From: a virus
Lineage: Duplodnaviria; Heunggongvirae; Uroviricota; Caudoviricetes
Length of the DNA stretch: 39,777 nucleotides
Virus record (IMG/VR): IMGVR_UViG_2537562191_000049
Strand: one strand, 5' to 3'
The position numbers and the translations under genes were made by a program. Below the pieces are notes generated by a model. It did not search any database and was not told the DNA's origin. It saw only the letters and a program-made list of their open reading frames with translations. How positions within the stretch are numbered: position 1 is the first letter of the stretch; the number at the start of each line of letters is the position of its first letter. This document shows, piece after piece, positions 27,190 to 31,000 of the stretch.

Positions 27190-28625
27190 CAGAATCCTCC
27201 TTTCTTCTTGGACTGCGGTTCCTCGCGTTCACGTCGGCGCATTTCAGCAGACTGTTGGTCTGTGTCATAAATAGCGCCATTTGCCTGAATGCAATACACC
27301 GTGCCGGTATTGCCATGACGATTGAGACGAAGGATTAGTTCGGTTTCACCAGGTGGAACACTGTCATCAAAAGCACCTTCACGATGGATCCCCACCCAAT
27401 AATCGCAATCCTGTTCAATCTGCCCTGTATCTCGTGAGTCACTTGGTAATGGGCGTTTATTGGTTCGGCTTTCCAGTGCGCGGTTAAGTTGCGTCAGAAG
27501 CACAACAACGCAATCAAGCTCTTTGGCAAGGTTCTTCAGTCCTTTGGTGATCATGCCGTAAGCAAGGTCGTTGCGATCGGCCTTCTCAGCGGTCATTAGT
27601 GTCAGGTAATCGACCAGAATCATGCCAACACATCCTTTTTCTCGCTTGATTCGACGGCTTTCGCTGACGATTTGAGCCAGAGATAATCCCGGCGTGTCGT
27701 CGATGTAAAGCATGTCGATTTCACTCAAGCGATTGGCTGTTTCGATCGCCCTGTTGAAGTCACCATCGTAATCACCCTGATAGCCGTCATCGGCGTCATT
27801 TGTCGCCGGAAGGTAAAAAATATTCGGGTTAACACCAGACTTCTGCCCTACCAGTTTTTCCAGTATCTGATCACCTGGCATTTCAAGGCTGAACATCAGA
27901 GCGGGCTTTTTCTCATGCACTGCGCAATTGATTGCCATCTGGCTGTATAGCGTCGTTTTCCCCATCTTAGGGCGAGCGCCAATGACAAACAGAGAGCCTT
28001 TCACCAGACCTTTCGGTGACAGCATCCTGTCCAGCGATGGGATCCCTGTGCTCATTCCCCGTTGTTCGCCTGATGGGTCAAATCGCTTCTCAAGGTCGCT
28101 AACCCAGTCTTCCATGACCTCGCCAAATGAGCGAAGGCCGCGACGCGATCCGGTTTTTGCATGGTCTGTCAGTTGCGTGAAAATCGCCTGAATAGCTTCG
28201 TACTTCTGCGTCGCAGTCATTCCGTTGCGGGAATAGAGCAATTCCGTCGCTTCAGTCATGCGGTTGATGGCGTAGCGTTCCATTGCGGTTTCACGAACCT
28301 GCATTGCATAGGCAACGATGTTTGCTGCGCTTGGCGTGTTCTTTGCGATCTCAGCGATATAAGCAAAACCGCCAACAGACACCGTTAACGATTTACGCTC
28401 CAGTTCATCGAAAAGCGTCAGGCCATCTACTGGCTTTTGCTCCCGGTGCATTCTGGTTATTTCTTCGAAAAGGATTTTGTGTGGTCGGCTGTAAAATGAA
28501 TCAGGCTTCAGCATCGCCAGAACTTTCTGGACGCGCTCACTGCTGTCATCATCCAGAAGCAATCCACCAATCACCGCCTGCTCTGCCTCGATGCTATGGG
28601 GCGGCGCATAAAAATTATCGGTCAT
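27189..28625 (-). CDS. Replicative DNA helicase (DnaB family; P22 gp12-like)
   Basis: Start moved to ATG at 28625 (MTDNFYAPPHSIEAEQAVIGGLLLDD...); Walker A GARPKMGKTT; DnaB-family signature. Confidence 0.85.
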   Translation of the reverse strand: MTDNFYAPPHSIEAEQAVIGGLLLDDDSSERVQKVLAMLKPDSFYSRPHKILFEEITRMHREQKPVDGLTLFDELERKSLTVSVGGFAYIAEIAKNTPSAANIVAYAMQVRETAMERYAINRMTEATELLYSRNGMTATQKYEAIQAIFTQLTDHAKTGSRRGLRSFGEVMEDWVSDLEKRFDPSGEQRGMSTGIPSLDRMLSPKGLVKGSLFVIGARPKMGKTTLYSQMAINCAVHEKKPALMFSLEMPGDQILEKLVGQKSGVNPNIFYLPATNDADDGYQGDYDGDFNRAIETANRLSEIDMLYIDDTPGLSLAQIVSESRRIKREKGCVGMILVDYLTLMTAEKADRNDLAYGMITKGLKNLAKELDCVVVLLTQLNRALESRTNKRPLPSDSRDTGQIEQDCDYWVGIHREGAFDDSVPPGETELILRLNRHGNTGTVYCIQANGAIYDTDQQSAEMRRREREEPQSKKKGGF

Positions 28626-29027
28626 CGTGTTCACCCTCACGAACTTTCAGGTAGGTATTATCGTTAAGCAGGAAATCAAATCCCTTTTTGTGCCAGATAG
28701 TTCCGCGTTGATGGTTTGGACGCTCTTCGAACATCCATCGGCAATTTTCGCCTACGTAGCTCAAATAATTTCTCCAGTCCTGCATCGTGAACCCATGCCC
28801 GTCAAGCTGGCGTGTTATCACTCCGGCTTTGCGCCAGAACGTTCGGATCTGGTTTTTACGCTTGTCATTCAGTGCGCGGATTCTTGGCGCTTCAGGAAGG
28901 ATTTCGTGGTAAGCATCGACAACATCCTGACAGCTGACGGAAGGTTTTTTCTTGTCAGACTTTTTGTCTGCTGTGGCACTCTCTAATACGTCAGTATTAG
29001 AGATAATATTATTATATTCTTTATCTG

Positions 29028-29122
29028 TGGTAATTTGCTGGTAATCTGCTGGTACAGTATTGCTTGCATGCATTGGTATTGCTGGCTTTGAGGTGGTAAT
29101 TTGCTGGTAATCTGCTGGTACA
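29028..29122. repeat. Origin-like iterons within the O-like gene
   Basis: Two identical 29-bp direct repeats tggtaatttgctggtaatctgctggtaca (29028-29056 and 29094-29122), each with two 11-bp sub-repeats, next to an AT-rich tract (29001-29027); encode repeated VPADYQQITT. Confidence 0.55.
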
Positions 29123-29494
29123 AAATTTGACTGATAATCGTCATATTTCTCTACCGAGAAAACTGAGAATTTACCGTGTGAAACCCAGTCAATCATGCCG
29201 AGTTTTTTGAACTTTCTAAGCAGGTACTGAACGCGATCTGGTTTGAGTCCTGTTTCAAACGCCAGAGAGTTTCTACCGCCAAGTAGCTTCCCTCTGCCTA
29301 CCAGAATTTCTCCTGCGTCAGTCATTACATACTCAGGCGTATGCTTTGCTTTGAGGATTAAGTGAACCCACAGATGCGCTGCTTCTGCGTCCTTGTAAAA
29401 CGGCACATCCATAATTTTACGGTGCAGCAAGGCATACCCCTTACCGCTGCTTTGAACCGCCCCGGGTTTCCTGGAGAGTGTTTTATCTGTGAAC

Positions 29495-30385
29495 TCAGGC
29501 TGCCAGATCATCGTTTCCGATGGAAGCATAATAAGCTTTTTCTGCTTCTGCCGGAGGAGTATGGCCCAGCCTTCCCAGCAATCGTCGATTGTTATACCAG
29601 TCCACCCACGTTAGTGTGGCCAGTTCCACTTCTGCACGGTTTTTCCAGCTCTTACGGTGTATTACCTCCGCTTTGTAAAGACCATTGATGCTCTCAGCCA
29701 TCGCGTTGTCATACGAGTCGCCTGTACTCCCTGTTGATGCCAGTAATCCGGCTTCTTTTAGTCGCTCCGTATAGGCCAGTGACACATACTGAGAGCCTTT
29801 ATCGCTGTGATGGATGGTGCCAGACGGACGACGGGCCCACAACGCCTGCTCCAGCGCATCCAGCACGAATGTCGTTTCCATAGACGATGAGACCCGCCAC
29901 CCCACGATGTATCCGGCAAACACATCAATGATAAACGCCACATAGACGAAGCCCTGCCATGTGCTGACGTAAGTAAAATCAGCCACCCACAGCTGGTCAG
30001 GTCGTTCTGCCACGAACTGACGGTTTACGCGGTCGCCTGCGGCAACGGCTTTCCGGCTGATGGTCGTACGGACCTTTTTACCCCGGAGAACACCGGCAAG
30101 TCCCATAACCGCCATGAGACGTGCCACTGTACATCTGGCCACCCTGATTCCTTCCCGTAACAACTGACGCCAGACTTTACGCACACCGTACACCTGATGA
30201 TTTTCATCGTATACGCGCTGTATCTCTCTCTTCAGCCAGTCGTCGTGCTGCGCACGGGCACTGCGTTTATCCGGATGATGTCGCTGTTGCTGACAATGGT
30301 AATACGTTGACGGGGCAATATGCAGTTCGCTGCATACCGGTCCGACCCCGTACTGCTCACGCAGCTTATCCAGCAGTGGCATCAT
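29495..30385 (-). CDS. IS629 transposase OrfB (DDE catalytic domain)
   Basis: 296 aa, IS3-family integrase-like core; overlaps orfA as expected for -1 frameshift expression. Confidence 0.85.
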
Positions 30386-30708
30386 TTTTTCCAGAGGCGG
30401 TCGAACTCCGCCTTCGCAAAATAAGCGGAAGCCTGGCGAAGGATATCGTTACTGCGGCGCAGTTCACGATTTTCACGTTCCAGCTCTTTCAGACGCTGAC
30501 GTTCAGCGCTGGTGAGCCCACCATCACCGCCCCCGGTATCCCGCTCATGCTGGCGAACCCAGACACGCAGAGTCTCCGGCGTACAGCCAATCTTTGGGGC
30601 AATGGAACAAATTGCCGCCCACTGTGAGTCATATTCATCCTGACTTTCCAGAACCATACGAATCGCCCGCTGACGGACTTCGGGGGAAAAACGAGTATTT
30701 TTAGTCAT
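30382..30708 (-). CDS. IS629 transposase OrfA (HTH)
   Basis: 108 aa [55 protein letters not shown]... matches recalled IS629 OrfA. Confidence 0.85.
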
Positions 30709-31000
30709 CCTGTTTACCTCTTTCTCAGGGAGTTTAGTCTCCAGGATTTCCGGGGCGGTTCACTTTGATGCGGTTGTTGTAGCCTTCTGGCCTCTCTGGC
30801 TTCGGCTAGATTAGATATGTTACTCATGACCTTTCTCCTTCTGCATCAGCTTCACTTTTTCCAACTCAGCCCGGAATCGACAAGGCTGCTTGAAGCTGGA
30901 CAGGAAGCGATCACGTAGTATGTGTTTGTGAATTTTGTCCTGGTAAGGACTGAGTTGTTTTGTCATAATGACTCCTGTGGATTGATCCAGTCTTTCTACA

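Follow-up and report, generated by a model that had tools for sequence, protein, structure and literature searches.

IS629/IS1203 splits the replication initiator gene of a P22-like Escherichia coli prophage, most likely leaving it replication-defective

The 39,777-nucleotide stretch of tailed-phage DNA analyzed here (Caudoviricetes; IMG/VR record IMGVR_UViG_2537562191_000049; hereafter, the window) carries a lambdoid replication module that reads, along the minus strand, cII, a 48-codon open reading frame (ORF) known as orf48, an O-like replication initiator gene, and a DnaB-type helicase gene. A full-length copy of the insertion sequence (IS) IS629/IS1203 lies inside the initiator gene and separates its first 21 codons from the rest. 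A first reading of the letters (the original prediction) proposed that this insertion splits the initiator and implies a replication-defective prophage. The split is borne out by the anatomy of the locus and by the family of the gene (PHROG 345), and the defect is its most likely consequence, by extension from the genetics of phages lambda and P22.

A script-based recount on the window sequence gives the element a length of exactly 1310 bp and agrees with the terminal repeats and target duplication described earlier. Both terminal inverted repeats read TGAACCGCCCCGG inward, with a perfect match at 13 of 13 positions and agreement at 22 of 25 over the first 25 bp, and the trinucleotide CTT (AAG on the gene strand) flanks the element on both sides. 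Over its full length the element matches at 100% copies that RefSeq labels ‘IS3-like element IS1203 family transposase’ in O157:H7, O111, and other genomes of E. coli that produce Shiga toxin (STEC), and it is equally identical to the copy that lies in the scaffold gene of the O111:H8 strain 7-55 62A prophage. The first of its two ORFs, orfA, contains the Pfam domain HTH_Tnp_1, and the second, orfB, contains rve, HTH_21, and rve_3; both match the NCBIfam model transpos_IS3 (316 bits for orfB), with orfA corresponding to the N-terminal part of the model, and an ALIL −1 frameshift pseudoknot spans their overlap (121.5 bits against an Rfam gathering score of 50). Length, terminal repeats, near-identity to annotated copies, the frameshifted ORF pair, and the target duplication all place the element in IS629/IS1203. 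It is the single IS copy of the window, has the same orientation as the initiator gene and as transcription from pR, and is complete and presumably active. IS1203 is the O111 isoform of IS629, IS629 target duplications measure 3–4 bp, and prophages hold 62% of the IS629 copies of O157 (PMC3271280). When set beside the insertions reported in prophages of enterohemorrhagic E. coli (EHEC) O157:H7, O111, and O26 (Ooka et al. 2009; Rump et al. 2011, PMC3271280), the element is identical, and the 3-bp duplication and the preference for prophages are alike, whereas the site, codon 22 of the initiator, is present in none of the collections that we searched.

The initiator gene begins at an ATG (30827–30825) with an AAGGAG Shine-Dalgarno (SD) sequence 7 nt upstream (30840–30835; duplex energy −8.8 kcal/mol), and our reading of this start and of the 21 codons before the element agrees with the earlier one. 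Between the start and the IS stand 21 complete codons and 2 nt, which puts the insertion in codon 22; from there the native frame enters the IS and terminates after 37 codons. In silico removal of the element together with either copy of CTT restores, as had been proposed, one continuous frame of 299 codons that ends at 28615. The restored protein is identical at every residue to database protein P0028, which is found on 494 public contigs, and differs at three residues from O of phage VT2-Sakai (296/299 identical) and at five from the orthologue of E. coli UTAK-8. In tblastn searches, residues 1–22 of UTAK-8 O align at 100% to positions 30827–30762, and residues 21–299 align to the 3′ fragment. 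Because restoration on excision is perfect, the initiator gene has not decayed since the insertion.

A 304-aa ORF that crosses the downstream junction is an IS-to-gene read-out fusion and not the native initiator gene. Its start, an ATG at 29529, falls within the last part of the IS in a frame other than that of orfB, and the ORF keeps O residues 21–299; a second candidate ATG lies at 29511. SD pairing is very weak for both ATGs (−1.9 and −3.5 kcal/mol, compared with −8.8 kcal/mol for the native start), so that neither is a good alternative start. An exact database look-up of the fusion product returned no recorded gene, and the fusion ORF is probably poorly translated.

The element that hosts the insertion is a P22-like lambdoid prophage located between sbcB and dacD in an O111:H8-type E. 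coli. Comparison with IS-free relatives supports the split: in UTAK-8 and 7-55 62A the initiator gene, 900 bp long, is uninterrupted and occupies the same place in the chromosome, and a 160-nt empty site is present in 245 of 5,426 complete E. coli genomes. The IS–gene junction was found in none of these 5,426 genomes, and in no phage record, IMG/VR entry, or GTDB representative genome searched. This absence marks the insertion as a recent event, private to the source strain.

Searches of PHROGs with the restored protein returned phrog_345, ‘replication initiation O-like’, over residues 2–299 (E 1.7e-87), and weaker matches of residues 25–190 to ‘DnaD-like helicase loader’ families. DNA that is 98–99% identical bears the annotation O in phages HK630, CP-1639, and VT2-Sakai and in many Shiga toxin (Stx) phages, with 98% nucleotide identity over the O region of HK630. 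The full-length profile match, the near-identity to annotated O genes, the internal iterons and AT-rich region, and the adjacent helicase gene thus fully support, at the level of sequence, the identification of the split gene as an HK022/VT2-Sakai-type O replication initiator (PHROG 345). VT2-Sakai (Sp5, GenBank AP000422), HK022, and HK630 share the order cII, orf48, O, DnaB-type P, with two 30-nt ori iterons within the gene; the window differs from them in that an IS interrupts the gene and that the carrier of the module is a P22-like (podovirus-type) prophage, not an Stx or HK022 phage.

Membership of the Phage_rep_O family, which the original prediction had put forward for the restored protein, was rejected. 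The protein has no hit to Pfam PF04492 at E ≤ 0.01, its sole Pfam hit being a sub-threshold match to DUF7376, and NCBIfam contains no model that matches either the initiator or orf48. Homology to lambda O (compared at lambda 38686–39585) was rejected as well, since no sequence similarity was detectable, with a BLASTP E value of 4.7 and an hhalign probability of 0.5% when a 40-sequence profile of the initiator (alignment A1) was aligned to lambda O. None of the solved structures is related to the initiator by sequence, and a Foldseek search of the PDB with a model of the protein returned weak, generic winged-helix matches (E about 0.01). The initiator and lambda O share their place after cII, a length of 299 aa, and an arrangement of N-terminal DNA-binding domain, ori-encoded flexible linker, and C-terminal domain. 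However, the lambda ori has four 18-bp iterons where the gene described here has two long composite iterons, and lambda O works with a lambda-P-type loader where the partner here is a DnaB-type helicase. The two proteins look like analogous, or very anciently diverged, solutions.

Among proteins P0001, P0002, and P0028, the initiator occurs in length variants of 299 (P0028), 321, and 343 aa, which differ by exact units of 22 aa (66 nt), with the sequence SKPAIPM(H/P)A(S/G)NTVPADYQQITT. Each unit therefore adds one ori iteron, for a total of 2, 3, or 4, and constitutes an iteron copy-number polymorphism encoded in the disordered linker of the initiator.

Apart from the initiator, the replication module is undamaged, in line with the earlier claim that the initiator alone is hit and that helicase and iterons are intact. 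The helicase aligns over 478 of 478 aa at 99.8% identity to its UTAK-8 orthologue and contains the Pfam domains DnaB and DnaB_C; there is an 11-nt overlap between its start and the O stop, and it has an SD of its own (−6.2 kcal/mol). Both ori iterons are intact within the 3′ fragment (30–35 nt each; 29027–29061 and 29093–29127). In a repeat search they are 94% identical and 66 nt apart, each is composed of 11-nt ACCAGCARATT sub-repeats, and their positions agree with ‘ori iteron 1’ and ‘ori iteron 2’ of the VT2-Sakai record. An intact AT-rich stretch, presumed to be the unwinding region of the origin, adjoins them and contains a 10-bp inverted repeat (28980–29003). Upstream, cII matches Pfam Phage_CII (E 1e-42) and is 100% identical to UTAK-8 CII.

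The 48-codon ORF that had been noticed between cII and the O start is real and belongs to a known family: it matches Pfam DUF2740 with 97 bits against a cutoff of 27 (E 4.8e-28), its stop and the O start share an 8-nt overlap, and it is annotated as ‘DUF2740 family protein’ in RefSeq relatives. The VT2-Sakai record names the two neighbors of O ‘HK022 Orf48’-like and ‘P protein; DNA helicase’. PHROGs labels the orf48 family (phrog_1913) ‘tail protein’, and one phage record repeats the label; we judge this to be a mislabel, given the conserved place of the gene in the early-right operon between cII and the initiator, which, together with the overlap of its stop and the O start, speaks against a role in the tail.

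Table 1. Features of the interrupted replication module, in window coordinates
Feature	Coordinates	Strand	Basis
DnaB-type replicative helicase (‘P’ of the HK022/VT2-Sakai module, P22 gp12-like)	27189–28625	-	Pfam; UTAK-8 alignment
Initiator 3′ fragment, residues 22–299 and stop; holds the conserved winged-helix N-domain, ori-encoded linker, and C-domain	28615–29452	-	tblastn; alignment A1; AF2 model
Read-out fusion ORF, 304 aa	28615–29529	-	ORF list
AT-rich stretch, 25% GC, presumed unwinding region	28980–29039	.	Composition profile; inverted repeat
Origin iterons	29027–29127	.	Repeat search; AP000422
Left-hand copy of the 3-bp target-site duplication CTT	29450–29452	.	Sequence reading; script recount
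IS629/IS1203 (IS3 family), intact	29453–30762	-	Terminal inverted repeats 30738–30762 and 29453–29477
IS orfB, 296 aa, DDE/rve integrase core	29495–30385	-	Pfam; NF033516
ALIL programmed −1 frameshift pseudoknot	30311–30427	-	Rfam RF01497
IS orfA, 108 aa, HTH_Tnp_1	30382–30708	-	Pfam PF01527; NCBIfam NF033516, N-terminal part
Initiator 5′ fragment (SD, ATG, 21 codons and 2 nt, right-hand CTT 30763–30765)	30763–30840	-	Sequence reading; tblastn
orf48, 48 aa, DUF2740/HK022 Orf48 homologue	30820–30966	-	Pfam PF10872; RefSeq and VT2-Sakai annotation
cII, upstream in the same pR operon	31001–31279	-	Pfam Phage_CII; UTAK-8 CII

An AlphaFold (AF2) model built on a 40-sequence alignment (mean pLDDT 82) contains a confident winged-helix-type N-domain (residues 25–125) and a helical C-domain (residues 190–299), both with pLDDT >90, and between them a disordered linker (residues 131–179) that is encoded by the iteron and AT-rich DNA. 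In alignment A1, the conserved core begins at the motif G26-[YWF]-x-x-L-H-R-K. The N-terminal extension that precedes this core is near-identical in P0122, in the closest relatives at 61% overall identity, which suggests that the extension is under selection and matters.

IS629/IS1203 has transposed into codon 22 of the initiator, leaving the 3-bp CTT duplication, and 1.3 kb of IS now lies between the last 278 codons and the native ribosome-binding site, start codon, and first 21 codons. Because the native frame stops within the IS, the authentic 299-aa initiator cannot be made. Without the initiator, the iterons would stay unbound and the helicase would not be delivered to ori, and after induction the prophage would be unable to start its own replication, an O-minus or gene-18-minus phenotype. 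The O-minus phenotype of lambda and the gene-18-minus phenotype of P22 belong to established replication-null genetics. By analogy with these mutants, loss of initiator function and a resulting replication defect are most likely, and we consider it quite probable that the induced prophage fails to replicate on its own. In a promoter and terminator scan, no sigma-70-like promoter was directed outward from the IS, and the sole terminator-like hairpin that the IS contains on the gene strand (29995–29980) was weak; from this, strong polarity can be argued neither way.

Several observations weigh against such a defect, and some of them also speak for its rivals. The case for it argues by analogy from lambda O and from gene 18 of P22, and the window includes neither the integrase gene, which overlaps the xis end in relatives, nor the remainder of the host genome. 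Because the IS points the same way as pR transcription and contains no strong predicted terminator on that strand, transcripts probably still reach the 3′ fragment and the helicase gene. The insertion lies in the linker of a lineage-specific N-terminal extension, so that the whole conserved core (residues 25–299) is still encoded downstream. In the AF2 model, residues 1–24 are of low confidence and stand apart from the domain beginning at residue 25, and residues 19–24, at the IS site, have pLDDT <50. Moreover, in a survey of start positions among 107 homologue representatives (50%-identity clusters) with a match covering the N-domain, 70 start no more than 7 residues from the position aligned to O residues 20–35, in agreement with alignment A1. 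Just past the IS, the strong SD-like sequence TAAGGGGT (29430–29447; −8.4 kcal/mol, nearly equal to the native O SD) stands 6 nt before an in-frame TTG (29430) that corresponds to O residue 29; it is probably a coincidence of coding sequence, yet it is the best internal candidate for re-initiation. These features would allow a leaky insertion, in which the first ~24 residues are dispensable and a functional, N-terminally altered initiator is produced from the 304-aa fusion ORF, with its O residues 21–299, or by re-initiation at the TTG. We regard this as distinctly unlikely: the fusion ATGs are nearly devoid of an SD and fall within the last translated part of orfB, initiation at residue 29 would drop the nearly invariant G26, the extension is near-unchanged in relatives at 61% identity, and no gene caller has recorded the product.

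Initiator could also be supplied from elsewhere in the cell, by a co-resident lambdoid (e.g., Stx) prophage of the same O type, in which case the ori and helicase described here would fire when both prophages are induced. The O111:H8 strains 7-55 62A, 7-16 37A, TW05614, and E2863 each have two places that match the O gene, including its N-domain and iterons, and thus a second locus that could serve as donor. The same O/P module is present in many Stx1a- and Stx2a-converting phages, and help from other prophages replicates and packages defective O157 prophages (PMC2669165). In O157 Sakai, defective prophages whose replication or morphogenesis genes are disrupted can still be excised, amplified, and packaged through co-resident help (Asadulghani et al. 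2009, PMC2669165); that work was experimental and concerned other prophages. Strain O111:H- 11128, however, has one O-matching place. Lambda O, moreover, is preferentially cis-acting and unstable, which counts against complementation in trans, and we hold this explanation to be possible, if doubtful. Alternatively, the insertion could be a reversible lock, with excision of the IS promoted by IEE restoring wild-type O in a subpopulation and leaving the prophage conditionally defective. In O111:H8 STEC, the iee gene resides on SpLE1-like elements; it promotes simple excision of members of the IS3 family, IS629/IS1203 among them, and IEE-mediated excision of IS600 reactivated lacZ in O121:H19 (PMC9397093, PMC9943667). 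That such excision is documented in O111:H8 STEC (PMC9397093) is a further point against a fixed defect, as is the perfect restoration of the ORF on excision at the duplication, free of secondary mutations. On the other hand, IEE events also yield flanking deletions, there is no sign of selection for a switch, and excisability is general to any IS629 insertion in such hosts, so that we consider a reversible lock unlikely. The broader proposal that the IS acts as a conditional replication lock placed in a dispensable disordered extension, which could be re-armed by scar-free IEE excision or could run at a low level through an IS-initiated fusion initiator or helper O, seems to us highly unlikely. 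Assembly artefact, in which an IS copy was misplaced into the O gene during repeat resolution, would be in keeping with the multi-copy nature of IS629 (up to 53 places per genome) and with a junction that recurs in no other genome. Both junctions are clean, though, and the element is complete; we rejected this explanation as extremely improbable because a perfect 3-bp duplication of a target that is single-copy in the 245 empty-site genomes is the signature of transposition and not of a chimeric join.

For annotation, one IS-disrupted initiator gene accounts for both ‘hypothetical’ fragments and for the chimeric 304-aa ORF around 28615–30827, and an otherwise complete-looking P22-like prophage is not to be scored as autonomously viable. 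All components are known: IS629/IS1203, the HK022/VT2-Sakai O-ori-P module, DUF2740/orf48, P22-like O111 prophages, and IS-driven decay of EHEC prophages. What is new is this allele alone, which is in no collection searched. IS insertion is a well-known route of decay for Shiga-toxin-type E. coli prophages, and the allele is a further example of IS629/IS1203 eroding prophages of O111:H8-type STEC, with insertions in O, in the scaffold gene, or adjacent to the coat gene depending on the strain. If helper O in trans or reversion by IEE were true, the locus would be a natural test case for mobilizable ‘defective’ EHEC prophages, a concept already established; if the conditional lock were true, a replication-silent prophage would spare its host lytic loss.

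In near-identical relatives of the prophage, annotation assigns P22-type coat, portal, gp4, gp10, needle, and ejection proteins and a tailspike; an O-antigen acyltransferase marks one end and xis the opposite end. Long stretches of the window match the O111:H8 7-55 62A prophage at 99.9% identity, and mosaic replacements occur in the immunity and nin/Q regions. When ORF lengths are set against the UTAK-8 annotation, every late gene, from Q by way of lysis and structural genes to the tailspike, is as long as in UTAK-8, and the prophage looks otherwise nearly complete. In the 7-55 62A prophage (NZ_CP077506.1; positions 22857–24070 and 29103–30316 of the extracted locus), one IS1203 splits the scaffold gene and another lies upstream of a small-terminase-like gene, in the terS-proximal spacer; in TW05614 (NZ_CP077436.1, around 1989330), IS1203 lies at the P22-type coat gene. 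These sites indicate that the prophage lineage has been struck by IS629 independently several times.

At ~38269 of the window, a single-base deletion relative to 7-55 62A (GGTGCATTCC to GGTGC-TTCC) frameshifts a 267-aa hypothetical gene of the early left operon into two ORFs (38054–38380 and 38371–38856), and is either a second, minor prophage lesion or a sequencing error. The window starts at the ATG of an acyltransferase ORF (1–1068; Acyl_transf_3) and ends at the stop of an xis/AlpA-like ORF (39586–39777), and was therefore evidently cut at gene boundaries. The pL recombination region (33350–37710) is of P22 type, with Erf (35120–35755), the anti-RecBCD protein Abc2 (36162–36455), DUF7739, and Ead/Ea22, whereas the otherwise near-identical UTAK-8 prophage has a lambda-type exo/bet/gam/kil/cIII block instead, a typical module swap.

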